Positions 5,581 to 56,151 of a stretch of 64,000 nucleotides of DNA are shown here, piece after piece. Source of the DNA: Tubulanus polymorphus. Its lineage: Eukaryota > Animalia > Nemertea. The notes beneath the pieces were generated by a model, which worked only from the letters and a program-made list of their open reading frames with translations, was not told the DNA's origin and ran no database searches. How positions within the stretch are numbered: the first letter of the stretch is position 1; each line of letters starts with the position of its first letter. The translations under genes were made by a program, and so were the position numbers. The stretch covers positions 10,292,001-10,356,000 of the forward strand of contig NC_134025.1 in assembly GCF_964204645.1 (NCBI RefSeq). Reading direction: 5' to 3'.

Positions 5581-7511
5581 CTAGGCGGATACAGTCTCCA
5601 CGATCGACTTTTTGATTATTTCTCCAAAATTCGACGGGCTGTTTTGTTCTTTCGAGTTTTCCAGATTGTCGCAGATCGCTGCGACCGCCACCGGGCACTC
5701 GCCGCTCGTACCGCCGAATCCGTTAATCGTCGTCGACGACGTCTTCGACGCGCCCACCTTGTCGTCGGCCATCATCGTCGACTCGACGAACTCCGAATGT
5801 TCGCAATAAGGCTGTAACTGACCGGAAGTGAACGCCGACGCCATGTTCGTCCGGCGCACCGTCTGCTTCGTCTTCTGCGCCTCGAGACTAGTCCGTAATT
5901 CGTGAAACGTCGGTTCGGTCGACGACGAGACGACTGTTTCCATCGCGACGTGGTCGACGCGACCGTTCGCCGCCGCGCCGTGCGGCTGTTGTTGATCGTA
6001 GTAGACTTTATCGATGTCCAAAGTCGCCACGTCTTCATAACACGGAGCCGAGCCGTTCGTTCCACCGCCGTACGATTCGTAATTATGCCGATGCAACAAA
6101 TCCGAATTCGTGGCGCACGAGATCCGACTGTAATTATCGGTCGCCGTTGTCGCTGACTTCACCGCCGCGAAACAAAACCCGGGGCCGGCGCCGCCCGACG
6201 AGGCGTTCGGATTCCACGCATTTGTCGAACAGAGACCGCCGTTCTCGGAGACCGGATAACTATTGAATCGTATCGGGCTCAGAATTTCCGATATCGGTTC
6301 CAACTTATACATCGAATTCGACGCAGACGAAGAAGAAGAAGAGTTTAACTCGATGTATTTCTGTTGCGACGACGACGACGACGACGCTGATGATGATGGA
6401 GATGATGACGTTGTAGTCGTCGTATTACGCGTATTACTATCGTTAGGAGGAAGGTACATACCTGATGAATTTTCGCAATAATCACGCCGCGCGCCGTTCA
6501 ACTGGCCGTTATTCGACACCCCTGCTACTGGCGCGTCCGCAAAGTTCTGAAACTGCCGCTGCGGATGATGGTGCTGATTTTGTTGTTGTTGTTGCTGCTG
6601 CTGTCCGTCGCACGAGGCATCGCTCGAACAGTCGCTGCTCTCTGAATACGAACTGTCGTCTTTCTGGAAGTCGTAGATCGCCGTTTCGCCTTGATGGAAC
6701 TCGCCGCCGCCGTCGTCGTTCGCGTCGTTGAACAACATGACACGCGGCAACGAATCGTTCTGTTGCGCGTTCGTTGCCTGCACCATCGAACCGTGCTCGT
6801 CGTAGTGAAGCGCACCGAAGTCCGCGTTCGACATCGGCATGTCTAAGTCTAGGTGACTGGTCAACTGAACGTCGCGCATGACGACGTTGTTCACCTCGGC
6901 GTTTTGACAATCGCAACAGCTGCCGCGCTCGTTGCTGTTAAACGCGTCCGGTTTCTCCGTTACCTGCGGCGACTTTCCCTCTCCCTTTTTCTCCAGCTCG
7001 AGCCGCATGAGCGTGTGTATGAAGTGCGTGCGCACGCGCAGCGGGTTGAACTCGATGCGGCCGGTCACGTTGCCGCAGCCGTCCTTCGTGCAGCCACACG
7101 GGAACGACAGCCGATCGACCTGACACTGGATGCCAGCGACGCTGCACGCGCACGTCTCTGGGTCGCAGAACACTTTACAGTCGCAGCCGCAGAACTCGCG
7201 CGATATTCGAATGTCGCGGCAGTCCTCTTTTTCGACGTTGTCGATCTTCTTGATCCCCGACTGGCGGAGCAAAATACGTCGCTGTCTAGTCGGCACCGGT
7301 TGCAAAAAGTAATAATCGTCGACTTCTAAATCGGAGTCCGAGTCGCTCAAGTCGCCGTTTTTCGGTTTTTTCGATCCGTTCAAGTTCGATTTCGGCGCGA
7401 TGCGTCCTTGTCGTTGGTGCTCTTGTAGAATCAACTTGTGCAGCTGTTTCTGTTCTTTATTGTACGAGACCATCGTAAAGTCCTGTCGGTGAGAATGCTT
7501 ATTTTCCATAC
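5581..7511 (-). CDS. CSRNP: CSRNP terminal coding exon (Cys-rich domain plus Q/S-rich acidic tail)
   Basis: Acceptor tttcag|GT ATG at 7511; 642-aa ORF ending [12 protein letters not shown]. Confidence 0.95.
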
Positions 7512-12958: not shown

Positions 12959-13075
12959 TTTTTCGTGAACGGGGTTCGAGTCGTTTTAGTCGCCGTCGTT
13001 CAGAATTCACATCCCCTGAAAGAACACGGTTTCAGAATGAAATTACCGACACGATCAAGTCGCTTCATTATTTTA

Positions 13076-33041: not shown

Positions 33042-36000
33042 CTACACCGTAGTCTCGTTTGGGGAGTTTAAATACGGAATTGTGCGGTTGTTTTTGTTTT
33101 TACTACTGTTCAAAACGTTGTAATAGTCATGTTCCTCACTGCTCGGTGACTTTTGATGCAGCGGTTGCGTGTCGGTGGGACTCGACGATCCGAAACTGGT
33201 CGGACTGACGGGGCTACAGCTCGGCGACGTCGACGGACCCCGACCCATGATAAAGTAACCCGGATTATCCATCGATCGCGGATTCGAATTTTTATCGATA
33301 TCTAAGTCCAATGTGTTTGGCGGTTTACTCGGGTTCACATATGTATCATCTGAAATGGAAGGATGCCGAGACTTAATAAGAATTCATAATCAGACGCCAT
33401 TTCAACTGATTTAGACTTCGGGTGAAATCTTTAACAGCAGGGATAATGACTGAACACAGATCTCAATCTCCACAAACATACAGACCCAGTTCCACAGTTC
33501 TGAGTTAAGATTTGACTCCGAGTTAACTCATTGACGATGAACTAACTTAAACCCAGCTCTAACTCACAACTGTGGAACTGGGTCCTGCTGTTGAATTTGG
33601 GGGAGGAAGACATTCTGTTCAAGTAATTCAAGTAATTAATAAGAGTCTGGTGCGTTAATGTATCCCTATAGATTCAACAATTTCCTTTTTGAAACTTACT
33701 GTCTATGACATCCATGTAATGGTTTGGTTTCATTGATCGTGGCTGTAAATAATCATCCTCATCTACAGGTAGGTCTAAATGGAAATCTGTACTGTCAATG
33801 CCGTCAAATAATCCGTCACATTTGTCTTTCGGAGACATATCATCTATTGAAAAAGAAACAAAAAGTGAACCTGCATTTCCACAAGTGTTATACCGACATA
33901 TATTACTTGATTATTCATTGATATACGTGGGTTTTGATTAAGCCGTAGATGTGTTTGATTTAATCATAAATTGATTGTATGGTCAAACACTGCGGTCACT
34001 CCAGTCACTGGGGTGTTAGTAAAAAGAGGTATATGAATTCATGGGATAATGTAGGGAACGACGGCTAGTGAATTCCTCTTGAACCAAAGTTATTCGATTA
34101 CACGTGTATACCTTTTAAAACTTTACATGGATCAGAGCTGTATCTGGAAGCCACGCTGGTCCCTCGCACTGGTCGCGACGCCTCCAAATGACCGTATTTT
34201 TTATCCCGCTTCGGTGCTATCAGATTATCGCTTTCCTTTGCTGGGCTACAATTTGGAGTGCTTCTTTCATCGTAAGCAGGCTGCCGGAATCTGCCATTTG
34301 CCTAGAAAGCATCCATTAAAATGACTTTACATTCGACAATTATTGCGTGCTAGCAGTGAATATTTTTTGTTCCAATACCACAAGAAGACGAGGCAAGGTA
34401 CATTGGTTTTGGTTTGCTCACCTGCATCATAGCGTGTGGAATGCCATCCTTGATATCGACATCAGGTGACTCGTCTTCTCCTGATAAAAGCATTTTCGGT
34501 GACAGATAGTCTTCGGCATCCATCACAGTCTCTGGACCATCTCCGGAAACGCTCATACTACGAACTAAATCATTTGTATCATACGTGTGGCTCGGCAGTC
34601 GTAATAATTTGTCACCCTAAACAAGAAACATTACTTGTATCGAAAATGAACATTTATTTACACAAATGCAAACAAACCACAGGCAACAACGATTTTCGGG
34701 CTTAAAATATCAGCTTAAAATATCACGAATTAGTTGATATATTTCCTTACTCGTATTACGAGGTATCTTCCTGGATCTCTGGCCATTTTTTCGAATTCGT
34801 CTCCTAATTCCTTAAACGATGGACGACTCTCTGCATCTAACATCCAGCCTGAAATATACACAGAACATGTGAGACACGAATGGTCCAATAAAAACGAATG
34901 TAAATGATCCAATGATCCATGCATCAACCCTCCGATCATAAAGAATGCACACATTTTATCCCCATGGCAGTTTCCTGAAGCCCTTTTTGAAATAAAATAC
35001 AGTAAGATAGATATAATCTTTTGCCTGTTCAAAGTAGTATGATATAGTTTACTATACTGGTACATGCCTTTTATGTTGAGTACTATGTGCAACTCATATC
35101 GTTCATACTACCTAAGATCTTGACCTAGGTCTGTTAAACTTACATTTGATCATAATCATATAGACATCAATTGTACAAATGAGTGGTTGCGGTAATCGTT
35201 CTCCTTTCTCGAGCAAATCGGGAACATCTCTCGCTCGGATACCTTCATAGGGACGTTGACCATACGTAAACAATTCCCAAACCGTAACGCCTGAAACCAG
35301 AGAGAAATAATTCATACTTAAGCCTTACATGAACTAAAATCACACTTATATTGCTTTAAATAAGCTTATATAACATATATTGGGTCAAGGTGCCATTAAA
35401 ATTTACTTTTTAGATCAAGACTCAATCCACATGCCAAAAGTGCGGTACCTAGTTATTCAAGGATATTAAATCAGCCAATATCAATACATAAAATCCCATG
35501 ATACGAAAGAAGAAAGTGTCCAATATGTTTCCTTTTAGTATCATTCATTTTAACATTTCAACTTATTCTTATAGTCATCTTCACGAATCACTACTACTTT
35601 CAAAGTTACAACAAAATTACAATTTTTGGAACTAAAATTTGTATTTCCGAGTAATACTTACCCTTTCCTATGGTTTTTGCCAATATTTTCTAAATTTGGA
35701 TTGAGCGCCAATTGTTTTTCTATACGACCCGGCCCTGCGGTATTGCATTTAGCCACAGGCGAAATCCGCCATCTTTTTACGTCATAGCAGACCAAAAAAA
35801 AAAACAGCTATGCGGGGCAGGTGGGCGGGATTCCCACCATAGGAAAGGGTAAGTACTACTCGGAAATACAAATTTTAGTTCCAAAAATTGTAATATTTCC
35901 GTCGAGTACTGTACCCTTTCCTATGGTTTTTGCTAGACTAGCCTAGCACAAGGATGGTGGGAAAGGTAGATAGAAAAACCACCGCTCAAACGCAAGGTAA

Positions 36001-39000
36001 GAGGGAAAAAGAGAGCACTTACCCAAGCACGGAATGGAGCACTGTAGCACAGGGAAGACCGGTTGGCCACAGTGAGTCCGTCCAGCTCAGGGGCCCCCCA
36101 GAATTTTGCGAAATTAATACTTGCAGATATGAGCCCAAACTATGTACAAGGATACACCCCCTGTGATCCTGATAATGCAACATAAATATTCTACACTAAA
36201 GGGTCCGATCGGAAAGAACGGACACCTTGAGCCATGACAACAGGACCAAGTGAAGCTAATGAGCCTAACTGGCCTGAAACATCCCGTAAATAAAATGACG
36301 TGAATGTCGATGGAGAATTCCAAAAGGCGGCCTGACAGACTTCCTCCAACGGAGCACCCGAAAAGGCTGCGCAGGAAGTAGCCATAGACCTCACTTGATG
36401 AGGAACCACTCCCTCCGAGGAAAGATTCTCCTTCAATAAAATGTCCTTGATCAGTGAAGAGACCCATTGGGCCACTGTGTCCCGCGAAATATCACCCTTT
36501 AGGTGATCCAGCAGCGGAATAAATAACCGCTCCCGTGAACCCCTCCGTGAAGCAGAGCGATCTAAATAGAAACACAACGCCCGTGCAGGACATAAAGTCC
36601 TGTCCGGGATGCCCGGTTCCACTCGATGTTTTAGGGCTTCAATTCGCCATTGACGCCCAACCGAGCCTAGTAACGAGCTGTTCTCAGGGTTGTGGACACT
36701 CCCGCTACAGCTTCTTGAAGTTTGGCTACTCGAGCCATAGACGGAAAGACTTTGCCGATTCGGCAGCACCTGGAGTTGCGTAATACGCCGAGCGAAATGC
36801 GCCTATAGGTGGATCGGTTGAACTAAAATATTTCCCAGATTTCATACCCCGTTCTGGAGGGGGAAATGAAAATGTTCCAGGCCGACATTCACCCCATAAT
36901 TGCGTATCCAATCGAGCCCATTCTCTCGAAACCGCTGACGATTCCCGTAAAACGTTAAGATCGGAGTCCGGAGGGCGATAAGCTTCCATTGACTCACCGA
37001 CCAGAGGAGCTGCTGTGGGCTTAGCGCGAGTCGCCCCGTGCTTGACAAAGAACTCACTTATCATCGCTCTAAATGGCATGTCCCCCGCTGGTTCGGATAA
37101 AACTGAACGGGACGGAGATACATTGCGAGCCAGGGAAGCCCCCATCGTCTGGGGCAACCCACAATTGCTCGCGACAGGAACGACCCCAGAAGGAATTGCC
37201 GTTTCTGGGACCGGATCCTCATTGAAATCAGACCCTACCGCAGCATCCAGGAATTCAGAGTCAGAATTCCGAAGAACTGAGTGGGCTGGCGAACTTCTAA
37301 CCGGACAATCAGGAATAGGGTTACCTGTTGTAGAGGTTGCAGCGACTTGTTGCGACGAAGATAACAAGTTTGAAATTTTCTCTTCAAATACATGGAAATC
37401 CTTCTGAGTCAGGTATTTTCCAGTATCCCGACGATCATGCCGACTTCGGTGACGGTCCCTCGAACGGGATCGAGACCCACTAGAAGAATCGCCTTCATCG
37501 CTAACCGACGTCGACGAACGATGAGAAGACCGACGGCGAAACTTCCGACAATAATGATCGTAGTCCCTCTCGCGATCAAACCTTGATCTGCGAGAAGGAG
37601 ATCTTGCTCGTTTATTACGCTCACGGCGTCTAAATCTAGTGGGAGAGCGAGCTCTATCCCCGGAGCGACGATCAGAATCAGACGATGAACGTACCGGATG
37701 TTTTGAACCGGACGACGTCTGGACCGGACCGGTGCCCGAACCGGACCGGTGCCCGAACCGCACCGATGCCCGACCTGGACCGGTACCGACCGAACTGGTG
37801 CGGGCCGTTCCCGACTACCGCGGCGCGCGTTCGGTTCCGAACATGTAGTCTGAACCAGCCGAACCGGCTGAACTGGTGAACGACCAGAGACCGGTGAATG
37901 ACCGGAGACCGGTGCCGGTGAACCAGCGTTCCTCCCCGGTGAACGGAGTTGGGAAGCTGATCGTACCTGAACGACCGGCGACCGCTCCGCTTTACGATAA
38001 GAAACAGGATTAGAAACGTCGGTTGGCACATCGGCCGAAACCGACGAATCCCTGCTAACTCGACGACGATCTCTTAGTTTAAGAGCCTTATCGGCCCAAA
38101 GCCAAAGGTCCTCAGACCACACCTCGCAAATCTTGCAAGGATTGCTCCTTGCACATATTAGACCGGATTTGCGCCTGCACGACACACACGAATCGTGGTT
38201 GTCCCAGGCGCCAAACAAATGCCCGCATCCCTCCCTGCCACGATGTTGACCCTTAGGAGGGGGCGGCATAATTATCCTGTTACAAATCAAATCAATTCAA
38301 TTCAATCAAATTATATTTGTAAATAAAATTCTTACGGAAAAATAGAAACCAGGGATAACCCCCAAACCGAACGGACTCACCGTTATGAGAGTGAAAACTC
38401 CCTAATATCCTAATTCCCAGATTTTTACGGCGAAAAAATCCAACGCGTTCTACTGCGAGAACGCCAAGAAAAAAGATGGCGGATTTCGCCGGTGGCTAAA
38501 TGCAATACCGCAGGGCCGGGTCGTATAGAAAAACCATTGGCGATCAATCCAAATTTAGAAAATATTGGCAAAAACCATAGGAAAGGGTACAGTACTCGAT
38601 GGAAATATTATGAAACATATATACAATCCAGAACAGAGAGACTAACTTTGTAATCAGAAGCGATACAAACTGGGGGTAATACAATGTATAAACAGTTACA
38701 AGCTAAATGAATTCTAAGTAGAGTGAACTAGGGGGTTCTTGTCGTATATCGATATTATTGTATATCATTCTTACTACACGGACAGAATGTTTAAACGAGA
38801 TTATTGATCATGTAAATGCTCTTTCACTTACCGAAGCTCCAAACATCACTCTTTTTGGTAAATATTCGATGTTGGATGCATTCCAAGGCTAACCATTTTA
38901 TTGGCATCTAAAACAATCAAAACAGGGCATGAATCATATTGATAAGTGATTGCTACATGCATTTGGATTAACCATGTTGGTCTTGAAGGTTGCTGACTAA

Positions 39001-42000
39001 CCTTTCCACCAGTAGCGTGGTACTCCTCTTCATGGTAATCAAGAAGCTTTGCCAGACCAAAATCAGTGATCTTTACTTGCTGTGAACTTTGCACTGGAAA
39101 AAAGCATACAGATCATAATTCACCAAAACATGCGCATATTTGTACAATCAAATCATGATATGAATCATTTTCTGAAAACGCTGTGATTAGGACATAATGT
39201 GCTTACCCAACACATTCCTGGCGGCAAGATCTCTGTGAACAATGCCTCTTTCTTCTAAATATTGCATACCCTAGAAACAAACATACGCATTCGCAATAAG
39301 TATAGATGTATCCAGTACTATGCCCGAGGTAACTAACATATACATGAAAGTAAAATTTGTGCCAACAAATAAACCTTCTATGATTGAAAGCCAAGCCATG
39401 AACAACAAATATAACGTTTTACATTTATCAGTTACTAAATTCAATCCTCACATTACATTCACTACAAACTACTGGTACAACAGCAGCATAAAGAAATGCT
39501 CATACTTACCCTCGCTATCTGTGTACACCAGTTCAAAAGTGCTTTTGATCCTATATTTTTCTGGTGTTTGCGCACATAGTCCAGCAGACAACCAAGTGGC
39601 ATTAGTTGCGTAACGAGCATCATCTGCGCAGTCATACAAACACACAATACTCGTATACAACATGGATGATCGACGGACGCCATAACTCGAGCTTCTTCCA
39701 GGAGTTCTTTGTTCATGCAAGGCGAATTGCCTTCCTGAAGGACTTTAATCGCAACAGGAATCTTAACATTTTCACCTTCAGGTATCCATACACCCTGCAA
39801 AACAAATAAACCGGTAATTTCAATAAAAATGGCTGATACGAAAAGTCGTATAATCAAGCCCGTAGCCAGGGGGATATGTCCGTTCGAACGAACGCCCCTT
39901 TTTAGAAAGTGCCCTTCATGATTTTGGTAATTTTTTCAGCCAACTTGTTACAAATTATTACACGCTTTATGATACCTTTTTGTTGTCAATTGCTTATGGC
40001 TTTTGCGCATCCATTGAAACACTATTGTCTGTCTGAGCTGTCATATATGTTACAGGTTCAAAGGCACCTTCAGTGTAGGTCACATCCTACCAGCAACTCA
40101 ACTGGCAGTCCATTGTTTATAATGTTTTCAGAAACACATGTGGCTAACACTAGGCTCACACAGTAATGCAGATGACGAATTAAAAAAGAAATTTTCACAT
40201 TTCTTTCGAAGTGGATATTTAACCGTATACGGCAAAGTATTTACTTCCGCAATTTCTGCGTACATTATCACTATATATTTAGTATTAACTAATAAAAGTA
40301 ACAATAAAATCATTTTATTGGGTTAAGGGTAAGGGCTTCGATAGGGTTAGTGTCAAGAGGGTGAGAAGAGGGTCCAGAGGGTTCCGTTTTACCCCTAGGG
40401 ATAGGATTAGGGTAAGGTGAGGTACTATAGATAGTTGAAACATTCGAATGGTTTTCAGCGAGCTCGGTGGTCTAGTGGTATGAAGCTGCGCTAGTAATTT
40501 AGGCCTACTGTCTCGGGTTCGAGTCTCACTCTATCGGCTCTATTTTCTCTAACTCTGTTCTCCACACTTTCCTTGAATTTTCTAAGTCCCCCACTTCTGT
40601 GCGCATGCGCGGCGTAAATCAGCCAATCAGCGACGATGTACGGTAAAATAGTGGAAATAAACACTCAGCCGTATATGGTAAAATATCCACTGCGTATTTC
40701 TTTCATAACATTTTCATCATAGTATTCTTTTTAATTACATTTCACTGATTCCATAGATGTTTTTTGCTCCAGTAATTACAGATTTATACAAAAAATCATC
40801 GCTTTCAAATTCACCTCGTGTATGTGTGAGCGAAGCAGTGCCTTACGTTGGCGAAACAACTACATGCTATGTTCAATGAGGCAGGATAGGTTAACCTCCT
40901 TGGCCTCATGCACATACATTACGTTGGGGATATCTACAAAAGCTAGGGCGAGAATATTCGCGGGAAAACACCCAAGACGAATGTAGTTTATTATATTTAT
41001 TGATTATGATTTATTTGTTGGGTTTTATTGTTTGTGGAATAGCTACAAAATTCTATTTTAAGCATAGCCTGGGATACTGAACATGCAAAAGTGTCCTTTT
41101 TTATAATTTAAGAACGCCACTTTCAAAATCCTGGCTACAGGCTTGTTATAATACACTTCGGTATCCTATGAGTCACCAGTCCTGTCCAATGAAACATAAG
41201 ATCAGTCTTCTAGTTAAGTTTAAAACCTAGTTTTCATGAGCAGTTTCCAGAGAGCTTTTTTCATGCTACTGAAGCTGGAAGACACATCAGCAGAAAATAG
41301 CTATTGCAAATGCTTCCTGCTCTGCCCCAAAAAAAATGCCGTGAAAACGGTCAAACTGCAGCAGCAATTTTGGAAAGGAAATTCCATCAGGAAACTGCTG
41401 CTTATGAAAACGCGTGCCACTGCTATTGGTTGTCCGGGCGACCACGCGTATTTGTGCTTGTTGTCACCTAGGGTATTTTCACTTTTTTTAGCTGTAAAAA
41501 GCAAATTGCTGGCTCTGGAAGCTGCAACATGAAAATGCGTGTTGCTGAAGACATTTTCACATTGCAGGAAAAAGTTAGTTGGAAATAACTCATGAGAATT
41601 GGGCTTAAACATAAACATAATATGATTAACTGGCATACTGATAGTGCTATATTTTGCCTATCCTTGTAATAACATAAGGTATAGATACATCATACAAAGA
41701 ACCTTAACTTCTAAAGCTTACACATTTTTGTGAAATCAAGGAAGTTATATCCTAGTGTGTTATTTCATATGATAGTGGATTCTTCAATTTACCTTGTAGA
41801 CAGTTCCAAAAGCTCCAGATCCTATGATTCCACCTCGTCGTAATTCCGACTCTTTAACAAGTCTCATGTGCGCCATATCCGGTTTAGCATCAGACGGAGT
41901 TAAAGGCTGTAAAAAACGCAGGAATGTCGCATTGTTAAGATCATGGTGAAATGTTCGTTTGTACGTGGAAAAGACGTAAAATCTACAAACCACATCGTCG

Positions 42001-45000
42001 GTATATCCGCTGAGACGCGCGGTCAGTTTCAAAGCGTTCTCCTTCGACAGGGCTCTCAAGCGACAATAGTAAGCAATAACTCCGATTCCGATGATAATGA
42101 GAAACACTGCACCCGTCACAGATCCAATCACAACACTCATGGACCTTTAATTAACAAATGGTGATTCATAATCAGGATTAAAAACTCAAGGTTCTGAATT
42201 CATAAGCCACAATCACACAGAGACAATTTGGCCGGGCTGAACTGGCACGGATCAGGCCCGAGTCAAATCTGGCCCGTGCCTAATTAGAGACCACGTTCAC
42301 ACGTAAACCCCTCACTCGATACTAAACAATGCTTAAACAAAGCAAAGTGAATCACTTCCAGAACCAATTGCAATTCACAAGCAATGATTTGACCGGTGCT
42401 AAAATTTGGCCTGGTCCAATGTCTTTGGTCGGGTCATGTTTGGCCTGGGTCAAATAGGCACAGGCCCATTTGGCACCCAGGCCAAAAATGGTCCGTGCGA
42501 TCGCGGCTATAATGAAATTGCAAAATACTTACGCAGGCATCGTAACTAGACAAACATCTTCACCAGTTTCCTTGTCAGCATCAGTATATGGGTGTGTCTT
42601 TGGACACTTTGCAGTACAATTTATCTTCTATAAAGGGTGTAAAAAACTTTTAGGGATACAATTATCACTTGTAAAGATTACCAGTAACAAAAGCAGGCAT
42701 CATCTTCATCAAGTCACTTGAGATACAAGTAAATACAATATTCAACAAATATTATGTGTAGCTCTCGAAGCCTATAAGTTGTACTTACCCTGTCTTTGCC
42801 AGGATCATCTATGTCAACTCTAAAATGCAGGCATAATTTACAATCGGTTGTACTTTTACCAGTGCACCCACGTTTACATTCATCATGGCAATTTCGACAG
42901 ATCAGGTCTCCTACTTCATCCGGCTCGGCATACGTGCCTTCTGGACATCTCGAAATACATCGGCTTTGGAAGCGGTAATATTTGCAGCGAGGACAGTTAT
43001 AATCACCAGCAGATGTACATGTTCTACACATGTCATCGCATCGAATACAACTCTGAAACACAGTAATATAGCCGCATAAGATACATTTTATAATAACTAT
43101 ATCTACCCATGATTGAGTTATGGTGCATCTTTGGCAATTAAAAGAGATTCAAATACTTGTATTCAGTTAATCGAAAACTCTATATAGTTCAGTCCACCTC
43201 CTGATAAAACCATGACCGAGCTCTACATTTGAACTAAAAAATTGGCTCATTTTCAATAAGCAACATTTGTGAGACTGGTTCTAATATAGAGCCAGTTCCA
43301 CAGTTCTTGATTAAGATTCAAGGCTTTGACTGAAAGAGATGAGGGTCTGAGTAAAACATTTACTGTAGAAAAAATCAAACAGACTAAAAAGGTTGAATCT
43401 CAGGAAACATCTATGAATTTGATTGTAATTGGCATGCTTTCTCATCATTTACAACACGATTTAGCAACTGGGTCAGATAACTAGGATACTTCTTACAGCA
43501 TTTTGGCAGAAAGTTACATCAAAATAAGTCGATCTACTATGAACATTCAACGTGGGTACTTACTGCAAGACGTAACAAAGAACTGAATGAATTTTTGTCC
43601 GAATGTTGATTCAATGTGTATTTCAGATAATATCCGTCCGGGCAGACGTATTTATCTGGATTGCTCTCCAAACAATGGTCGACCTCAGTCGCATTTTTCA
43701 TCACCACGAACGAACAATTGTTGCAAGCGTTCTTTCCAACCTTGTTCAACGGGCCGGTACATCTAAGATATCACACAACAGAATGTGAATGTTACATGCT
43801 CGACTGACTCAGGAAAGAACACACGAATAAGAAAACCAAGAAGAACTTACCCGCCGACGCAATAATCATGGCACGGTTTACAGTGTTTGGTATCATCGGG
43901 ATATTTTGAACTCGGACACTTTTCAACACAGAAAGGACCATCTTTGAAATTCTTGCAGCCGTCTGAACAGTGGTCGGAATCCTAGATATTAGATGCATCT
44001 ATATTATTTCAACTGCGATAACAAGTATACATATTATTATGATTTTCTTCACCTTAAGAGATATTGTGTGAACCGGTGAAATGGCTATTTCATTAGTTGA
44101 ATAAAATTAGTAACCTGAGCACTAATAAACCCCGAAAACCTATTCCAGCCATCATAATGCTTCTACTAAATTCATGGGCAATCAATTGTTAAGCTTTAAG
44201 AAAGGCTAAAAACACGCAGTTCCCATGGGTGTTTAGCTAGTCGAAACAAATGATCTATGACATACGTCTGAGTCTTAAGGCTAGCATTTAACCCTTTCAT
44301 TGCATCTACACCGTAGTGTGGTGTGTAAAGAGGTGATGGTCTTTGCTAGTACACCGCATCACAGTGTATTGATGTTATTAATTAGTTTTCATCTCGATTG
44401 AAAGATGGCAGTACCTGTCTGACTTAGTGGAATACTATTAACAAAACACCATCATCCCGAAGTGTAAACAAACTACAGCCCATTTTTCAACACACTGGGT
44501 TAGAATTTTCAAAAGATTTTTTTCAAATTATCTCCAGCTTTTTTGAATATCAATAATCATATCACTGAAAGGGTTATACGTGAATGATGAAGAAAATCAA
44601 AAGGAGCTACATTAGCTTGACTAATTGAAAGAAAATTTGGACCCACTCTTGCTTCCACTGAAAAGTTCAGTGCACAATGAAATAAATTCTATCTGTGTAA
44701 CTGTGAACAAATTGAATTGAACTTACCGGCCCTTTACAGTTAGAGTTGCATTCTTTGTGGCATTTTTTGCACGTTTGATTTCCAGCGTCATAAAGTCCAG
44801 GTTCGCTGTAGCAACTCGAAACGCAACGGCTACCGACGCGGAAATTGACACAATCTTGACACTGCTCGGGTCCAGGACCCATGCAGCCACCCGCGCATCC
44901 TGGATCGCATTTTAAGCCTTTGGTTACTGAAAAATTACAAGTGAGTCATACTATCAGTTATCTATATGAAACCATGCCTATACAAAAATCATAAATCCTA

Positions 45001-48000
45001 CGTTAATAAAAGCATTGCGTTATACGCTTTTTAGTGATATTACTAATTATTAAGCCAATCACCTAAATTTTCACTCTAAGACGTTATGTCTCATTAATAA
45101 TATTGTGTTCAACTTTTATAGTTTTATAATTTGTTAGTTTTCTCGGATCAAATTGATTCTTTAATCAATGCATAGGTGTAATATATGTTTTAAAAAGCAA
45201 ATCTTTAACCAGCAAACTGCGTTGTTAAAAATCTTAATGTAACAACAAAAAAAAACTAATTTTCATGAGTAATCTATACCATTTGAACTTTTAGACCAGT
45301 GAATTTCACTACTTTTAAACTATTGTGGAGTTTTGAAAGGTTAGTAAATACACCTATATATTGTGCGTGCAAATTACAAAGATGTTACAAAGATGTTAGA
45401 TGAGGTACTGTTAAAAACAACCTCTAACCATAATGTTAGACAAAAATAAAATATCATTTGAAAAAAAATTAAAAAGTTACTTGGTAATTGTTATCTTCTA
45501 AGTTATGAATAAAGTTACAAATCAATTGATACTAGTAGGACAGGGACACCATGCTCACTTGGAAAAATGCTTGACAATCTGACTACTTCATTCAATGCCC
45601 CCTCCCACAATTTTGCAATTGATTGTTGTTTCAAAATGTATATCATTTAGTTTTTAACCCCCCTCCCCATCAAAAAACCTTTTTCTATCTACAAATAAGG
45701 ACTGATGACACTAAGATGGCTAATGATTGCATAAAAAACCCCTCTGATCTATGAATAACCCTGTTCTCAAAACATTACGTATATCAATGAAAAATAGCAG
45801 ACCATTAAGAACCTAAGCTTTAAGGTCAAAGGATAGCCATCTTGTGTCCGATGGGCCTAGTTTTTCTGAAGATGATGGGCAAATATACACATAATATTGA
45901 GAATATTGATCAAAGTGTCCACAAAATTTCCTTGAAATCCTCGAAAACAAAAAAATAACAATGGCTGCCAGTTCATCATTGTAATTTCGATCAAGCCAGC
46001 TTTTTGGGCTGCCCATGGGCAGATACGCCAAATATCAAGACAATCCATTGCAACGTCTTCAAAACTTCCCAAAATAACTGGATTCAAGGATTCCATTTAC
46101 CCACAGCAAATGGATAGAAAAGTGAATGCATTAGTGTGCTGCAAGTGGGCTACAAAATTGAAAATGAAATACATAAACTAATCAACAAATAATTAAAAAT
46201 ACAATGTAAAATGCCTGAAGATGCAAATTCATTCACAGAGAATTTCACGACTGCTCTGGGGTGAGGTAACAGCATTGTCAGGCTTGTGAGTGTAACAAGA
46301 GTGTATAAGGCACCCAATCAGTCCTCAACAGGTCGAACTGAGAGACTGTCGGAGTGTCCGCAACATTCAGACATTCATAACGGGAAGCATGCATATATCC
46401 AGGGACAAAATGGGTTCAGGAGTCTGGAAGGGTGTAGGGTACACTATTCATGGGAATGTTTCTTTAAACAAATGATTTCTTTAAAATGTTAGCATAAAAA
46501 CCAATTTCAGAAACAATGACAATCATCCTTAAACTGACGTGTCGGAAAAATCTTTTAAATCTTCTTCTCAGCAACTAATATCAGTGCGTTGGAAGTACTT
46601 ATTCTAATAACTTACGCCAGGCAGCATTTGTGCAATAAATCTAAAATCTAATATCGTGATAAGCCGTGATAATATTGCGATATCTTTTCCAAAGCTACTA
46701 GGAAAGTACTCGACAACAATAGACATCTTATGAATGTGCGAGAGGTTTGTGTGTGTGTGTGCGCACCGCGACACCGTTCCAGACCCTTAACCTGTGTGCT
46801 ATAGTGAATCAACTAAAAAGACTGTACAACGACATGCACAACTAATAAGGACGACTCAGCATATGGTCAAACACAACAACATCGGTGGTTACTACCATAT
46901 ATGAGTCAAAGTTTTTTTTTTCACTTACAACACATTTCGGGAACACCGTTCAAGTGAATATAGAATGTATTTATGAATTTTTTCCAATCGATCGTATCAG
47001 CCAAGCAGAGGGCTTTATTTTGGACTATGATTACATTGCCATTTTGTAGGCTTTTAAGCGATTTCAACCCTAAATACTGTATATGGTCGCTGCGGGAAAT
47101 CTGTATCACTGCCTCGTAGCTGTAAATAGATCATGTTAGAACATATTGAAACAAACGTAGCTTATTCACGTGAGCTATATCAGATAGTGAGTTCGAACTG
47201 CCGACTATTATTATTATTCCATTGAAAGTCATGTGAACCCTCCAATTAAGTCGAATGAAACCACGACAGATTATGTCAAATAGTCAATATAGGCTAAGTA
47301 TTGAAACCGTAGGGAGACAAATAACAGTGTTGGCAGTAAAATCCCAATACGACCTGACATAGCTCGCCTTTCAGCAACGGAAAGGCTGTTCCACCTTAAT
47401 TTCATAGGTCGCCAGTGTTCGGTATCTTTTTTCATTGATTCACACCTCTTTGGGTCGTATTCAAAGAGCGTCCTGTTATATCGAATCATCCGATCTCTGC
47501 TTGCTTTGCTCAACGCAGCGCAAGGTCGCTAAGTCAAACAGGACGAGGCGAGTACATCCGAGAAAACAACTGGCGACGTATGACATGAAGGCTGTTAGTA
47601 AACGCTAAAGAATGAAAAAACTTACAACACTTAGCCCGGCCCGAGTTCTTGGCAAAGTATGATTTGGCATTCGGATTCAGTTTTGACCAGTCATAATCGA
47701 CAGCAAAACATAATTGTGGGTTATTCGAAATAAAGATTACGCCGGCCGAATTGCGCAACTGCTTGAGCGAGCGCAGTCCCAAGTAAGTTAAATACTTATT
47801 GTGACTGACGTGTAGGATTGATCCGCTCCTGTAAATTATGTTTCGAGAACACGAGAAAAACAAAATGAACATTTTCACGAGAACAAACACACGAAAAGAA
47901 ACAGACGCGGTTTCACAGAACAGGATTTTAGTCACAAATGTAGGTAATAATCCCCCCTGGGTAAAAAAATAGCCCAGAATCAATTTTCTATCAAACTAGA

Positions 48001-51000
48001 ATAAAAACACTTAGAACTATCAAGGAACACATATGTACATAGATATTATGACTTTTAAACTATATTTCTTTATAGAAATATTCAAAACTACAATAATGCC
48101 ATTTTTGATGCATGTAGCTTGCTATAAGTGACTGAATGATGTATAATTTGTATGCATGTAACTCTTTTAAGTCACAGATTATCCAAGGTGAATATTGTGA
48201 TCAGCACTAAGGAACTTTTAAATTTTTGAAATCTATCAAAGTTTTTCGGCATAATGGTGAAGTATTTTGTTGTGAAATCAAATTTGGGGGGATTTTTACA
48301 CATATAAGTCACATACACAGGAACATGGGAGATAGTCGGACAAATTCCAAAAAAAATCTCAAAATCCCATAACTCCATATATCTTTTACTTTCATGATTG
48401 TTATGGCAATAAACATTTTGGAGCTGGCAACGAAGCTTTGCTAGAGATGTTGAAACATTTGGCGCTGAACTGGTAAATTGGTTAAATTAATCCATAGGCC
48501 GCTGGATTAAAAACCCACGTAAAGTAGGCATATACGTTCGAAGCCAGGTTTTCATCATTAATATTTTCAGGAAATGTTTTGTTGGATATGAAGGTGGCTA
48601 TCAAAAAAAAAACTTACCGATCCAGATATTTCCCATGAATAGTCTCGAGGTTCTCCAGAAAGCTAAGATTCGTCAAATTTTTGTGGTCGGACTGAATCAT
48701 GAGATAGCCGTGAATTTCTTTGACGTCTTTTAAAGCGTTCAGCTCCGACGGTTCCATCGGTCGATAACCATAATGCGGGTCACTAAAAATGGGATATACG
48801 GTCCACATGATACAGAGATTCAGGATTTTCAACCCCAGACAGCCATCTGTACTCGAAGTATGTCTTAGGTTGAAAAATTCATTCCGGGTCAAACATAAAA
48901 TAAGTACTATTTCAATTAATCAAACTATGAACCCTGGAACTGGCTCCAGATGATACAGTTCAGTTGATTTTTTGAATCTAAATCTCGGCTGAGCCATTCT
49001 GTGCCATCGTACTTACCCGGAGAATGAGGTAGACAGGATTCGGACGTTGTTTGTGATTACAGTACAGCCGCGGAATTGCCCGATATTGTTCGAATGGATA
49101 AAATCATTGTCACCTATAATGCCCGGACAGTCTGAATAGGAAAAAGAAAAATACATCATTTTTGGAAGAAGTTTCAGATGGCTATCATGATGCTATGACA
49201 ACAATTGAATAGCGGGAATCACAACTTCAAACTGAGGGATGTCTCAAATGATTTAGATTTTTCACTTAATTCGGATGAAATATTTGGTCTATTCAACCTG
49301 GAACCATTATTCATAATCTGGATTTTACTTAACTTAGTTCTATTAAATAAACTGATTTTGGAAACTATGTGTAGTATATAGGTATAGTGAGGTCTAAAAG
49401 ATACTCTCAAAAGATTCAAACTTATTTCCTTTGGCCCCTGCATTTTGATTGAAATGTCTTATGTCGCCTACGGGATGAGGCACCCGCTGAATAAGAACTG
49501 ATCCACCGGGTATACGTGAGGCTTCATGTTTCTTATCTAACACACAATTCTGCCTGTTGCTTGCCTATTTCTAGACTATATCAATCGATATGTTATAATG
49601 TATATCATACTGATCTTGGTTAAGTAATTATATAATTATACAACTGGCTGGGGGTGAAAAGGTTTGAATAAAGATAAGATACAAAAATTCATTGTCTTAA
49701 TACTTTACCCTTCTACTGATATAGATATTAGAAAAAATGTCCATATAATAATTTTGAGAAAAACCACAACTGTTCCGCTATTGACCGGTTTATCAAGTCC
49801 ACAGTAATGAATAACATAAGACTCTTCAGTCAAAATCTTTTTGTTTTTTACGCACATACCTTTTGGACAGGGGCCATCGCACTTTACACACTTTCCAGCC
49901 TTGTTGGCGCCTTGACTCATCGCGTATTCTCCCTTAGGACATTTCTTTACGCACGCGCTTCTGTGCTGGTAGAGATATTCTGAAAATAGAAATTGTCCAC
50001 TATACTGAATGCCAAGAATTGTTTTATTTGTATTTCAAATAAAAAAATGCTGCTTTTTGATTTTCATTCATAATACTCATCATGGGATTTCATTTAGTAA
50101 CAATATTAGGAACAAGGTCTTTATGGCCTCTTTATTATCATCAATTTTGTGACACATATGAAAAAAAAAACTAAATATCTACGGTAACTAAAAATGACTA
50201 ATTGCTATCAGGTGACCCATGAAATACAGATGATAATGATGATTTCATATTCATACATACTAGGACACTCTTTAGTGCAGATGTTTCCATACGTAAACTT
50301 GGCATTCGGATTTGGAATATATTTGTACAACTTCGAATCATAAATTTCTGGTTCCGGGCAATAGCTTTCGCATAAGCCGTCGTTGTAGAACTTTCGACAC
50401 GCCTGAAATAAGAAATATATCGATGGTTATGTTCGACATTAGGTGTTGTCGCTGAAGTGAAAAACTATTGAGAGTAATAATTTCTCCCGTATAAAAAGTA
50501 TTTGCCCACCGGCAAACAATCGATTTCGCAATCCAAGAATAGCAAAAAACGATAAAGCGGATATTTCGAGTTTTGATAAGTCGATAGAATTTATCGTCGA
50601 TAGAATTCTATTCGCCGAGGCCGCGGTGCGGGGTTTTCAACGACGTGTAATATTTCCGCGGAAAACCGGCTTGAAGTTCAAGAAATAAAACAACACTCGA
50701 ATTCGGCGTTTTATTACAGAAAATGACTCGGGTGTAGATAAATAAATGTAAAAACATGAACGCACGTAGGTTGAACATTGCACCACGTACTATGTTCTTC
50801 AAAGCAAATAATATCCCTTCACAATATCGATGACTATATCGATTTTGTGAAGTTATTCGATCATCAATGATTCTGAATGCTGTTGTTTTTGTCATACATA
50901 CCACGCAGTCTCCCCTTTTAGGGTTACTACAGCCGGCGGCACATTCGGCGTGGCAACACTCGCTCGGACCGGGCCCGTAGCATCGCCCGTCACATTGCGG

Positions 51001-54000
51001 ACTACAGATCACTCGATTCACTGCAATTACAAACATAGATTTTAGAAATATTCTTAAACATATCTGATTAAACTCCAAGCATATCGCAATCACTTCTCGC
51101 TGAAAGCTAATGTATCTTGTTTGATTTCAAAGTTTTACTTCAAAAGACATACTTAGAATTCAATGATTCTAGAACATATCTAATAAGACTTCAAGCATAT
51201 CTCGATGACTTAAACATATACATCTTGCTGAAAGCAAATGTATCTGGTTTTGACTTTGACAAAATATATATTTATCTCGATGATTCTAAACACAATGTAT
51301 TTGACTAAAAAAACCATTTCATTAAGCCTAAACATACGTCAATGATTTTAAACATGACTTCATTGACTTCAAACAAATTATGACTGTTCTCATGACTTCT
51401 TGTATAGTCAGTGACGTCCTTCATTTTTCTATTGGTCAGACATCAGGAAAAGGGCACACACTGGGTTTCCGCCAAGGGCGTCGAGGTACTGGGCCCCATA
51501 AAACTTAGTTTAAGGACCATTTCTTTCAGTCTACTTGCTAACTGAACATGTAAAATCAGAGATTCTAAAAATTCATAACAACATGTTTTCCCCCCTAGAG
51601 AATCAATACTTTTTCGGAATTTTCAAAAGATCCACGTTTTCCTTAATTTGTCGGACATTTGTTGGACCTGCGGCAACGTCACTGGTACTGGACTTTGCTC
51701 CTGATGGTTTCAAGTTGAAATCAGACAGTCGAATTACATTATAGACTCATCTATAATGCCTAACATTGTCTACTTCTAAAATATGAATCTAAGCTAATTT
51801 GCTATAATTTTAGATATTCAAATAGTTTAACTATTAACCACTAACCCAGTACAATGCCTACTCTAATTCCAAGAAATGTAGGCATTTTAATCGTATTTCG
51901 TGAAATGACTGGTGAAAATTGATACGAATAATATCATCGAAAATATTTAGTATTCGAACGATCAACATTCTCCGTGTGTGTTCGGTATATATGTATATGT
52001 TACGTACCTGACAAAATGGGAAATCAATCGAAAAGTATCATATTCAAAATATTGCCCGAAGATATGTTAGTCGTCATCAGAAATAACACGAAGGCTATGC
52101 ACTTGATATCATAATTATGAAATATGACCGCGTGCAGTCTCAGTGATTTACTGGCAGGTATAGTATTATATATCATTACGTTTTGAAGATGAAGCAAAAC
52201 TGTGAAAAATCATGAAAATAATTCGAATACGTTAAACTTCAAAGACGACTTCAATTTTCCAATTCACAGGAGAGTTTTTTTTTTCACCGGCAGATTTGCT
52301 CTAGATTTGTTTGACAAAAACAGGGGGCGCATGCCACGTACGTCCCCCCCTGTCTGGATACGCCACTGATTACAAGATACATATTAATTATTCAACCACG
52401 TGTGTGTGTGTGTGTGCGCACAGGCCATACTTATTTTCACGCTCCAAACTCTAGAAAAACAAGTGCGTCGGCGAACAATCCATATTTAATAAGTTATTTG
52501 CAGTTGGGAGCATTATATTAGTGAAACATTAGCGTTAAAGAGCACTTGGTACGAAGTGTAATAGGATCCAGTGTCTATAAGAATGCGATATATAATTAAT
52601 GACTAGCTGATAAAGCTACTATTGTGTCGGAGATATGAAGTTATAAAATCCGGTCTCTCTCTCTCTCTATACATGGCCGTGTTCTCAATCTTCCATCTTC
52701 AGAAACGGCTATTATCAGTACAATTTACACGCACGTTACATATACCGAGGCCGCTATTATTCGTTCCCAGGGGCCGCGCACGGTATCGGTTATTACTGGA
52801 CCTAAACATCGCATTAAAGCGCCAAAAGAGCCAATCCCTCGACTTATGTAGATATGCTAACAGTTACCAATATAAGACAAAAAGTATGAAAAGTTATAAG
52901 TTATCATTATCATTATTGGTGATAGTATCATCAACCTAACTATCATAATCATTATTGTTATCACTATTATAACTACTATTGTCACCGTCGTTTTCATTAT
53001 AATCATCAGTTTTACTGATATTCTTTTATAGTTACCGATGTTACAACACAAAATTCCCTGAGTGAAATTCTATAAATTTTCCCTGATTTTTTTCAAGATT
53101 TTTCTGATTCTCTGAGTTTTCCAGGTCAGGGCAAGCCTGCGAACTGATATCTGACGATTCACATCATCCAAAAATTTCACTAAGCCCCCTTTCATGTTAT
53201 TGGTACAATATTCATTACTCAATAGATGGTTGGTATTTGAGTACCATAGACATAGGTCTCGATCACGCAGAGACGATTTGGCCCGGGCCAAATTGGCATG
53301 GATCAGTCAAATTAGGCCTGTACCTAATTAGAGAGTGCCTTCACACATAAACTCGATACTAAATAATGCTTAAACAAAGTGAACTGAATCACTTCCCGGA
53401 ACCAGTTGCAATTCACATGCAAGTAATTTGACCCATGCTAAAATTTGGCTTGGGCCTGGTCTGCCATTTTTGGTCTAGCCAAATTTGACCTAAGCCAAAC
53501 AGGCATTTGGCACTCAGGTGAACAGTTGTTCGAGGCCTAATTTGTCAAGGGCCAATTTGGCACGGGCTCGCGTGATCGCGGCTATAGAGAACTTGTTTTG
53601 CCTAAATTAGGCGAGGGCTATACTTACATGTTTGACACATATCAGGACCATCGCCCCAGCAGTAAGATCCCCCGTTGACTTTACACGAACTGTGACATTT
53701 GTTACCTGCAAAACACGATTAACATGTAAATGACAATGAATGGTATCTTGAAACATCAAGATATCTTATTTGCATCTAATTCGAGATACGTGCATGAATT
53801 GATCTGTGGCCAGTCTATGCTCGATCTAATGTTTATCAACAACTTGGGACCTCATGATTTAAAGACTTTTACAACTTAGGACTAGCAATTGGGCAATTCG
53901 ACGAAAGGATTAGTTTTGAATTCAACTCAAAAATGATCATTAATCTTAACCCTTTCAGTGCATCTACACTGCAGCGCGGTGTATTAATTGGTGATGGACT

Positions 54001-55449
54001 TTGCTAGTACATTGCATTGCAGTGTATCCATGTAATTAGTAATTAATTTTCTTATCTACTGAAAGATGGCAGCATCTGTCTAAGATAGTGAAATATTAGC
54101 AACTAATGATACACCGCACAATGGTATAGACGCACTAGAGCGGTATACCCGTTTGGGGGGAAATTTAAAAAAATTTTCAAATCATCTCCAGCACTTTCGG
54201 GTATCAATTAGTCAGCGCTGAAAGTTTAAGATGGTTGTATACACGTGTATAAGAACGAATTTCCGCTCTAGAAAAGGAAGCTTACAAGGTCGTCGATAGT
54301 AGTGCGAAGTCGATTCGATCACGGTTCGAGCATCGCGTCCAGAGATTATATCGTCCCAATTGATAGTGTTGTGATGGCACAGTAGATTGTTGTTAAGGAA
54401 GTAGACACTGCCGCTAAGAATTTCTGAAAAGAAATAATCGAATCATCCCGTACAGGTATACATATATATATTGAAACTGGAAACTAGCATCGTGCGTTGC
54501 AGCTTCAATGGTGCAAATTGTTTTCATGACCAATGATCGTTTTTTAGGCTCAAACTTTTTACGAAACCCATCATCGATTTTAGTTATCATCGTTTAATGT
54601 CGATTTCCCCATACGGTAGTTTCCAGTTACCAGGGGCCCCCCGCATCGGACAGATTTCAACCTTTATTGCAATTAATTGACATCCATCCCTCCTTTGACA
54701 CAAAAATTAAATTTATATTAAAAAAAAGGTGACAGTTCCTATTTACTGAGGGCATTTGTTTTCTTTATTCTCGGCTGCAACTCTCGGACACAGTAAGTTT
54801 GAAAAAGACCCCAATTTTCGGAAGGCACCTAAAAAAATTGGCAATTTTGTTTCATTGGCTGTTACTTTTTCATGGTTTGAGATACAATCTAGAACTTTTT
54901 AATGAATATGGAAATTTATCTGAGGATCTTGGTAATATTGCAATCGTAAAATTATCTTATCACATCCTATTGGGTCCTACTTGGGCACATCCAACTTGGC
55001 TCATTCAGTGAGCTTCTCTATTATCTCTATTAGGATAACTAATCACGTAATATTTAGAATTTCTACTAGTTCTGTAGATTTACCTCTGAGGGAAGTCAAT
55101 CGAAGTTCCATGAGACCGTTCGTTTTCGAGCTCGGCTGCACGTTGAGCGCTACGTACAGCGCGAACTCGCCGACCTGATCGACGACGCGGAACAAGTCGC
55201 GGCCTCGAATCAGCTGCAAATTGTGCAACGAAATGTAATTCGTGTAGACGGACGTGATCAGCACGTAGCCGGTGACTTCGCGAATGTTTTCGAGGAACGT
55301 CAGGTTGTAGGTGGTGCTCGGGTCGTCGAGGAAAACGATCTCCAAGTTGCCGTCGACGTACGTGCAGTTCGTGTAGCGGTTTCGATACATTTCGTACCGA
55401 CTGGCGTGGGTTCCTTCGACGTTTAGACCTATTTCAGTACCACGGCAAA
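33042..55449 (-). CDS. EGFR: Epidermal growth factor receptor (EGFR/ErbB) tyrosine kinase: L1-CR1-L2-extended Cys-rich-TM-kinase-tail; first exon(s) upstream and unresolved
   Basis: In-frame GT-AG exons 55449-55084, 54423-54286, 53705-53628, 51020-50902, 50402-50261, 49979-49860, 49131-49017, 48782-48618, [47828-47626 OR 47119-46929], 44926-44727, 43981-43851, 43762-43564, 43052-42789, 42627-42533, 42144-41991 (TM), 41906-41793, 39794-39510, 39270-39207, 39093-39002, 38907-38832, 35290-35144, 34848-34751, 34616-34422, 34301-34112, 33843-33700, 33349-33042. Motifs [114 protein letters not shown]. Confidence 0.97.
33481..33587. mobile_element. Palindromic MITE family B
   Basis: gacccagttccacagtt ... 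aactgtggaactgggtc TIRs; internal sequence shared with the 12470 copy. Confidence 0.8.
35836..35933. repeat. DIRS internal complementary region (ICR)
   Basis: accataggaaagggtaagtactactcggaaatacaaattttagttccaaaaattgtaat is the reverse complement of 35616-35674 (1 mismatch); taatatttccgtcgagtactgtaccctttcctatggtttttgc is the reverse complement of 38568-38610 (1 mismatch). Confidence 0.92.
36191..36769 (-). pseudogene. DIRS tyrosine recombinase, C-terminal half only
   Basis: [36 protein letters not shown] (HxxR)..[18 protein letters not shown] (W and catalytic Y); the N-terminal catalytic Arg box is not present. Confidence 0.88.
36726..38269 (-). pseudogene. DIRS gag-like ORF1, frameshifted
   Basis: N-terminal Cys/His cluster [18 protein letters not shown], then an RS-rich region; split between ORFs 37409-38290 and 36726-37763 at a 17-bp tandem repeat. 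Confidence 0.75.
40207..40695. mobile_element. Nested TIR element carrying degenerate GGGTTA-like repeats and a tRNA-derived segment
   Basis: cgaagtggatatttaaccgtatacggc versus gccgtatatggtaaaatatccactgcg; gggttaagggtaaggg...tagggttag...attagggtaagg at 40320-40422. Confidence 0.65.
40460..40540 (+). pseudogene. tRNA-derived sequence (pseudo-tRNA / SINE head)
   Basis: A box GGTGGTCTAGTGG, B box GGTTCGAGTCTC and imperfect gagctcg/cggctc acceptor-like pairing; no clean anticodon arm. Confidence 0.55.
42205..42508. mobile_element. Harbinger-like MITE family C, complete, 3-bp TSD ATA
   Basis: ATA|agccacaatcacac ... gtgcgatcgcggct|ATA. Confidence 0.8.
44292..44573. mobile_element. piggyBac-type MITE family A
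   Basis: ttaa|ccctttcattgc ... cactgaaaggg|ttat. Confidence 0.8.
46929..47119 (-). CDS. EGFR: EGFR domain III (L2) C-terminal exon, alternative B
   Basis: tttacag|C TAC ... TGT T|gtaagt, 191 nt, phase 2->1; [63 protein letters not shown]. Confidence 0.88.
47626..47828 (-). CDS. EGFR: EGFR domain III (L2) C-terminal exon, alternative A
   Basis: tttacag|G AGC ... TGT T|gtaagt, 203 nt, phase 2->1; [67 protein letters not shown]. Confidence 0.88.
51030..51400. repeat. Degenerate tandem repeat (aaacatat.t...tga.ttc-like units)
   Basis: Recurring aaacata / gcatatctcgatga / gctgaaagc.aatgtatct motifs. Confidence 0.45.
51408..51458. repeat. Interspersed repeat; inverted copy at 58581-58631
   Basis: tcagtgacgtccttcatttttctattggtcagac.tca.gaaa(a)gggca versus tgccctttcttgaagtctgaccaatagaaaaatgaaggacacgtcactga. 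Confidence 0.7.
53255..53583. mobile_element. Harbinger-like MITE family C, TSD ATA
   Basis: ATA|ggtctcgatcacgc ... gcgtgatcgcggct|ATA. Confidence 0.8.
53950..54225. mobile_element. piggyBac-type MITE family A
   Basis: ttaa|ccctttcagtgcatctacactgc ... gtcagcgctgaaagt|ttaa. Confidence 0.8.
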
Positions 55450-56151
55450 CTGCAGAAAAAGATTGAAAAATGGATAACAATTATTTTAAAGCATTGGAGA
55501 TGTACTCGGCATACTTTTGAAAAAAAAGAAACTTTAGTATCATCCCTAATTCATAGAATATCAGCCAGTCTCGACGAGAATACTTGAACCTGATTCCATC
55601 GACAAACTCCATGCCCTTGGACACTGGGTGCACAGCTTTACGCACAACTAATTATATGATTCTGGTTGGCAATGATGATATCATGTTGCTAAAAGCCGTT
55701 CAGTGCTAAAGACAAGTCACAATGGCATCAGGTACAAATTCAATCCTTTGCTGAAACTATAGGGATTTAACTCAGCGTCACAAACAGTCTAAGAATCCTA
55801 GGCCCAGCAGTTCTACATATGTGGGTTGGATTTGACCTCGTTCATAGACAAATTCATAAGATTTTGAGAAGAAAATTTCATCAAATCTCAACCCATAACT
55901 GTTGAACTGGAGCCAGATGAACCACTCAGCAGCGATATAACAAAAAATGTTTTAAACATATTGTATTTTCGTAATTTCATCAGCATTACCAAAGAGAACT
56001 ATTTCACCTATTAGACAGATGTTAAAACACATGCACACGCACACACACACACACACATACATATAAATACAATTTCAGGGGTTAACTTCGTTAAACGTTA
56101 GCAAAAACGAAAACCCATTAGATCTGTAAAAACCTGCTTCCACCTGCTTAC

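Follow-up and report, generated by a model that had tools for sequence, protein, structure and literature searches.

The EGFR gene of Tubulanus polymorphus (Nemertea, Palaeonemertea) contains two alternative exons, here called A and B, that encode different versions of the same part of domain III. The pair is real, old and probably expressed; it belongs to a well-known class of mechanism, and its effect on ligand binding is what we infer. The explanation that best covers the whole is, on balance, that a one-of-two exon choice yields two versions of the receptor whose ligand affinity or preference is tuned. Splicing would include either A or B and would give two full-length receptors with a common fold core and different surfaces around the pocket that receives EGF Leu47. 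These different pocket surfaces, in turn, would tune the affinity for ligands or the preference among them. The window, by which we mean the whole stretch of 64,000 nt that was analyzed, carries the gene on its minus strand, with the following features.

33042..55450, minus strand: EGFR gene body, residues 30-1429 of XP_074662083.1
48618..48782, minus strand: constitutive upstream exon, 165 nt, mid domain III, matching the positions of human Asp355, Leu382 and Gln384
47626..47828, minus strand: alternative exon A, 203 nt, 67 whole codons, residues 445-511 of XP_074662083.1
46929..47119, minus strand: alternative exon B, 191 nt, 63 whole codons
44727..44926, minus strand: constitutive downstream exon, 200 nt, in which the cysteine-rich domain IV begins

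The first modelled exon is 100% identical to XP_074662083.1, a protein labelled EGFR-like, and the model with exon A is identical to residues 31-1044 of that protein; no exon for its residues 1-29 was found within the 64-kb window. The Tubulanus protein (P0006) has the EGFR/ErbB architecture, with PF01030, PF00757, PF14843 and PF07714, and its domain III aligns to residues 322-484 of human EGFR (E = 5e-33). When the six frames of the window were scanned with a profile of the exon family, three segments scored below E 0.5: A (1e-16), B (4e-18) and the corresponding segment of domain I (4e-6). No third copy was found there. The swapped exon is, we assume, the counterpart of human EGFR exon 12 (200 nt, phases 2 and 1).

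Exons A and B are separated by 506 nt, and each has the acceptor tttacag and a donor in which TGTT is followed by gtaagt. The upstream exon ends in CG, with an Arg codon split 2+1, and the downstream exon starts with TA, with a Leu codon split 1+2, which bears out the preliminary description, where both exons were given the same phases (2 to 1), acceptor and donor. Its statement that both frames are intact and keep the L-domain core also holds, as the 19-exon model is free of stops with A or with B and each peptide scores above the Pfam cut-off for Recep_L_domain. Joint inclusion of A and B leads to a stop at the fourth codon of B, and skipping of both leads to a stop about 33 codons into the next exon. 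The rule drawn earlier from the lengths of 203 and 191 nt, that exactly one exon has to be included, is thus reproduced, since either departure from it gives a frameshift and an early stop. From established knowledge, transcripts with both exons or with neither would in all likelihood be removed by nonsense-mediated decay. In human, 60% of the clusters are of this frame type (PMC5740500). Of four features by which tandem duplicated mutually exclusive exons are recognized, the Tubulanus pair shows three: the exons are adjacent and homologous, encode the same protein region and have the same phases; their joint inclusion or skipping is incompatible with a product; and both copies have been under long-term purifying selection. 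For the fourth, splicing of each exon to both of its neighbors in transcripts, the evidence is the RefSeq model for A and a contig end in an RNA-like run for B.

A single 2141-nt contig of run X1 covers positions 46058-48198 with 0 differences, and because it crosses both exons, a duplicate created by the assembly is ruled out. In an alignment of 61 codons, 48% of the bases of A and B agree, far from an allelic level, and with this identity and the contiguity of the X1 contig the probability of an assembly artefact, or of alleles placed in tandem, is negligible; nothing was found in its favor. Only 22 residues (36%) are identical, 14 of them encoded by different codons, and base identity at codon positions 1 to 3 is 51, 57 and 36%. 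Synonymous differences are saturated beyond correction (pS 0.77), and dN is 0.68. No similarity between the flanks of A and B was found over 200 nt on each side, which, along with the 48% base identity, indicates that no recent conversion between A and B has occurred in Tubulanus. In substitution-only simulations (2000 runs), a dead exon keeps its frame and GT/AG in 5% of cases at 0.3 changes per site and in 0.1% at 1.0 changes per site. Furthermore, Cys, Trp and core residues are retained in A and B despite the saturated synonymous sites, as under the purifying selection noted above. Since frame and splice sites have been kept despite this saturation, B has been under selection for most of its history, which would still allow for a recent silencing. 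As judged from their sequences, A and B are old paralogous exons.

Whether B is spliced in can be approached through contig ends, although no run is on record as RNA; X2 was classed as RNA-like by its behavior. Run X5 does not cover the exon region, which says nothing about expression. A 4288-nt contig of X2 matches only the exon at 39794-39510, and its other 987 letters correspond to the six upstream exons plus 29 letters. Predicted splice-branch bases, at which spliced and unspliced paths part and contigs break, were computed for 31-letter words. Among the 32 pieces listed out of more than 11,000, all four X2 contig ends examined fall on such a base: two at 44755 (for the donor of the downstream exon), one at 44897 (for the acceptor of that exon) and one at 46958 (for the donor of B). 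Contigs of X1 and X3 pass 46958 without a break, which speaks against a DNA variant as the cause of the break in X2. This indirect RNA evidence, one contig end in one run, makes it likely that the donor of B is used in transcripts, and we consider it very probable that B is included in them. Exon A is absent from the same 32 pieces, and the support for its splicing is the RefSeq model.

It is quite improbable, in our view, that A is instead the sole working exon and that B is used rarely or was silenced recently. Such a reading would agree with the single RefSeq isoform, as XP_074662083.1, which contains A, is the sole RefSeq protein found and the sole member of its cluster. It would also agree with the absence of a B-form protein from 1.84 billion representatives (62 hits with the exon B peptide, none close) and of a second version from the five isoforms of the nemertean Lineus. 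But an open frame, intact splice sites, and both Cys and the core kept despite synonymous saturation argue the other way, as does the X2 contig that breaks exactly at the donor of B where X1 and X3 do not. No other palaeonemertean was found for comparison. The B hit P0452, which matched in three stretches, was rejected as an exon pair, as this protein repeats its N-terminal domains.

Beyond the frame rule, intronic elements might contribute to the exclusion, although we would not count on it: the folded intron between A and B, a TACTAAC after A and TGCATG after B.

47594..47600, minus strand: TACTAAC motif in the A-B intron, +26..+32, putative branch A at +31; a candidate distant branch point or, alternatively, a candidate STAR/QKI-type site
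47394..47591, minus strand: predicted long stem-loop in the A-B intron, with arms 47569-47591/47394-47416 of 23 nt, 87% complementary
47159..47369, minus strand: another long stem-loop predicted for the A-B intron, which stops about 40 nt short of the acceptor of B
46833..46838, minus strand: TGCATG at +91 after exon B, a candidate Rbfox site
46393-46388, minus strand: second TGCATG, at +536 after exon B

TACTAAC occurs twice in the 13,213 nt of the 19 modelled introns and four times on the minus strand of the window; TGCATG occurs five times in the same intron sequence, two of them after exon B. The A-B intron folds better than its shuffles (z -3.56, 0 of 100; z -4.18 in a second run), and 3 of the 14 other introns fold more strongly still, with two more near z -3; the three stronger ones sit where many repeat contigs crowd the bins. 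Over the first 549 nt following B, the predicted fold is not stronger than that of shuffled sequence (z -1.42, 7 of 100). In OGDH exons 4a/4b, a branch-point-like motif lies 25-41 nt past the first donor, under a steric limit of about 50 nt (PMC7969005). The Tubulanus TACTAAC, with its A at +31, resembles this arrangement in lying less than 50 nt from the first donor, as a motif only. The likeness ends there, however, as the Tubulanus intron has no AG-free zone and does have a competing proximal motif: 23 AGs and a CTAAC at -20 lie between TACTAAC and the acceptor of B.

The swapped exon spans about residues 410-475 of human EGFR. The pocket for EGF Leu47 is formed by Leu382, Phe412, Val417, Ser440, Ile438 and Ile467, and EGF Arg41 meets Asp355 among Val350 and Phe357 (PMC4282322); EGFR site 3 is also described in PMC3728333. 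Five of the six pocket residues (Phe412, Val417, Ile438, Ser440 and Ile467) lie within the swapped exon, and the alignment together with PMC4282322 confirms that the matching human segment carries EGF contacts such as F412 and I438. Leu382, Gln384 and site 2 (Asp355, Val350, Phe357) align to constitutive upstream exons common to both isoforms, and therefore the binding face is swapped in part and not as a whole. Consequently, the earlier claim that the pair swaps the ligand face of domain III stands for most of the Leu47 pocket and fails for site 2 and for Leu382/Gln384. In Tubulanus, the residues of A and B at the pocket positions are S/A (412), S/S (417), F/I (438), S/V (440) and A/H (467), four of five differing; these positions were mapped through a lizard EGFR row, and the register over 412-418 is the least sure, as the alignment has an insertion.

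Over six lineage pairs, core positions, as picked from the general L-domain pattern, show differences in 22 of 84 cells, and all other positions in 219 of 301. Pocket cells differ in 23 of 30 (77%) versus 196 of 271 (72%) for the other non-core cells. Since the pocket is no more divergent than other non-core positions, a ligand-specificity switch is something we infer and do not read from the divergence. On sequence grounds, the fold is kept while the whole surface turns over, and the pocket is not singled out. That receptors with A and with B would differ in ligand binding seems to us somewhat more probable than that they would not.

The same segment is swapped in other animals. Members of 30 protein clusters were compared (at most 15 listed per cluster), and 26 clusters had at least two members compared. 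In 7 of these 26, isoforms of one locus differ over the swapped segment, in eight species: a brachiopod (Lingula), four oysters, a clam (Mercenaria), a brittle star (Amphiura) and a feather star (Anneissia).

Lingula anatina: EGFR isoforms X4/X5, same segment swapped
Magallana gigas: EGFR isoforms X1/X2, same segment, cluster shared with M. angulata
Magallana angulata: EGFR isoforms X1/X2, same segment, cluster shared with M. gigas
Ostrea edulis: EGFR isoforms X1/X2, same segment swapped
Crassostrea virginica: EGFR isoforms X1/X2, same segment swapped
Mercenaria mercenaria: EGFR isoforms X1/X2, same segment swapped
Amphiura filiformis: EGFR isoforms X1/X4, same segment swapped
Anneissia japonica: EGFR isoforms X1/X2, same segment swapped

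The swapped isoforms share prefix and suffix, with boundaries equal across clusters. In seven of the eight species pairs, the proteins are identical outside a stretch of 58-75 residues, the last of which is the closing Cys; in M. gigas, the two proteins show an additional difference downstream of the segment. These RefSeq pairs agree with Tubulanus in protein segment, boundaries and single locus; they differ in being automatic models known at the protein level, whereas Tubulanus B has no such record. The other 19 clusters showed no swap among annotated proteins, where Tubulanus B is missing too; clusters without an annotated swap include Lineus, Owenia, Watersipora, Haliotis, Mytilus, Octopus, Ptychodera, Glandiceps, Branchiostoma and arthropods. 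The swap thus occurs across three or more invertebrate phyla in RefSeq and seems undescribed.

Several candidates were set aside in this comparison. In the mollusc proteins P0048/P0053, the variation extends past the exon end and was taken as a species difference, and the paired forms of Argonauta, Octopus and Watersipora were treated as separate genes, given their different clusters or contigs. The insertions in Glandiceps and in Lingula X1-X3 were rejected as swaps, being splice-site variants. These insertions of 10 and 16 residues in Lingula (P0297/P0367/P0368) and Glandiceps (P0072 group) lie at one shared exon junction just before the swapped segment and represent a second kind of variation there. 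Separately, compared with vertebrate EGFR, both Tubulanus exons (from window positions 47830 and 47119 onward) have one extra residue ahead of the LGL motif, and the same insertion is found in Watersipora, Owenia, Dreissena and some of the second copies of oysters. In oysters, the second exon type is poorly conserved (Magallana 41-47% to others, Ostrea-Saccostrea 62%; P0374, P0409, P0418, P0295) compared with 81-85% for the first. Oysters may have three alternative copies, or one that evolves fast.

That this exon was duplicated several times independently across bilaterians is fairly probable; a single duplication early in bilaterian history, with later losses and with gene conversion by which the copies of each gene came to look alike, is rather unlikely. 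In the exon tree (50 rows, 67 columns), Tubulanus A and B group together (starred, 97/88), as does the Lingula pair (starred, 95/89), and both Mercenaria copies fall among the heterodont bivalves (92/73, not starred), the last of which goes against a single origin. The oyster types stand apart, the echinoderm copies are unresolved, and the oyster and brittle-star pairs are not grouped together, as a single origin would allow. Own-gene pairs are preferred in 13 of 15 quartets, and both cross-pairings are rejected in four of the 15 (Tubulanus-Mercenaria, Lingula-Mercenaria, Lingula-Anneissia and Mercenaria-Anneissia) at p<0.05, uncorrected and over 67 columns. These four rejections tell against a shared origin, toward which the Amphiura-Anneissia quartet leans by 0.5 log units. 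Constrained AU tests on the whole 50-row tree (fast searches) rejected 1 of 45 constraints; they are uninformative, and in not rejecting cross-lineage pairing they leave room for the single duplication.

The recurrence of the swap also bears on its role. Both isoforms could be real and the swap could alter something other than the response to the animal's ligands: basal autoinhibition or dimer geometry, inhibitor binding, or escape from parasite or microbe ligand mimics. We regard this as unlikely. It would suit a divergence spread over the whole non-core surface and not the pocket, the net charge of +7 for exon A and +1 for exon B (counted from sequence), and the oyster pattern, in which one exon type is conserved between genera (81-85%) while the other changes rapidly (41-62%), as expected if selection on it were relaxed or diversifying. 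But five of the six Leu47-pocket residues are within the swapped exon, and it is this exon that is swapped repeatedly, in 7 clusters. Highly improbable, in turn, is that the isoforms are functionally equivalent, with a duplicate that persists since the frame rule permits it and with some tissue served by each copy. Non-core differences are about as frequent as between species, and the identity between partners (37%) is near that with unrelated single exons (up to 38%), both of which would be expected under equivalence; yet several phyla have doubled this same exon, and more than one oyster genus has retained both types. Two receptor versions with tuned ligand binding thus remain the reading we prefer.

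Receptors with a comparable switch are known. Ectodomain exons of FGFR (IIIb/IIIc; C. elegans egl-15 5A/5B) set ligand specificity, with the involvement of Rbfox UGCAUG sites (PMC3585155). As in Tubulanus EGFR, the extracellular part of a receptor tyrosine kinase is swapped there by a one-of-two exon choice. FGFR differs in its Ig fold and receptor family, whereas the Tubulanus exons encode part of an L-domain, and of the two a ligand switch is known for FGFR alone. The Tubulanus gene, being neither an FGFR gene nor one with Ig-like domain exons, works like this type without being a member of it. EGFR genes have expanded independently in molluscs, clitellates, bryozoans, flatworms and others (PMC4914847). 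Vertebrate ErbB1-4 and the invertebrate EGFR duplicates are alike to the Tubulanus pair in providing several domain III versions per animal; the difference is that Tubulanus has one gene, in which about 65 residues vary and both versions have the kinase and tail in common. Convergent tandem duplicated exon substitutions, old homologous exons that arose independently in orthologous genes, have been reported for ion channels and others (PMC9741552). The EGFR pair resembles them as old homologous exons with a conserved core and differs in that the very same exon recurs. Recurrent duplication of the ligand domain in TGF-beta receptors is a parallel idea (PMC13187141).

The preliminary description knew of no account of such an exon pair in EGFR, and our search agreed with it: none was found in mostly open literature searched by title and opening part of the abstract. 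EGFR and ERBB have 0 occurrences in the main text of the surveys PMC5740500 and PMC9741552, and "splic", "isoform" and "exon" have 0 occurrences in the metazoan EGFR survey PMC4914847. PMC11802352 yielded nothing specific to the EGFR exon pair.

A broader proposal, for which we see somewhat less than an even chance, is that the Leu47-pocket exon is a hot spot of convergent duplication, doubled separately in nemerteans, brachiopods, oysters, clams and echinoderms. Regulated splicing would then produce ligand-selective EGFR isoforms, similar to FGFR-IIIb/IIIc, that stand in for ErbB paralogues, and the phenomenon would have escaped attention through its absence from fly, worm and vertebrates. 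Invertebrates with a single EGFR and several ligands are currently treated as one-receptor animals; Lineus ruber, for instance, has one EGFR receptor and four ligands (PMC4914847). If half of the domain III ligand face were switchable, animals with a single gene would own two receptors, which would have been lumped together in studies of knock-down, expression and ligand pairing in oysters, brachiopods and echinoderms. Natural pairs that are one exon apart on an identical background would offer a clean test of site 3 in ligand affinity and bias, and one exon duplicated repeatedly would be a strong case for studying convergence in splicing. Annotation undercounts the swap, as Tubulanus exon B is present in the DNA and in no protein record found.

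Other features of the window are recorded here for completeness. A juxtamembrane intron of 84 nt in the same gene (41907-41990) is in frame and stop-free, and its retention would add 28 residues; it is spliced out in the X2 contig. An intron of the kinase region contains a 2.9-kb element (35613-38610) whose 120-nt ends are inverted repeats (98%); additional inverted copies lie inside it, and many repeat contigs pile up on it. It has three open reading frames, of 295, 362 and 203 aa, and the 203-aa product gives a weak match to the integrase family (E 0.21). It presumably resembles a DIRS-type tyrosine-recombinase element, with no reverse transcriptase visible in it. Finally, a gene on the minus strand at 5581-12999 has a Cys-rich segment (CGCDC...) and may resemble the CSRNP family.
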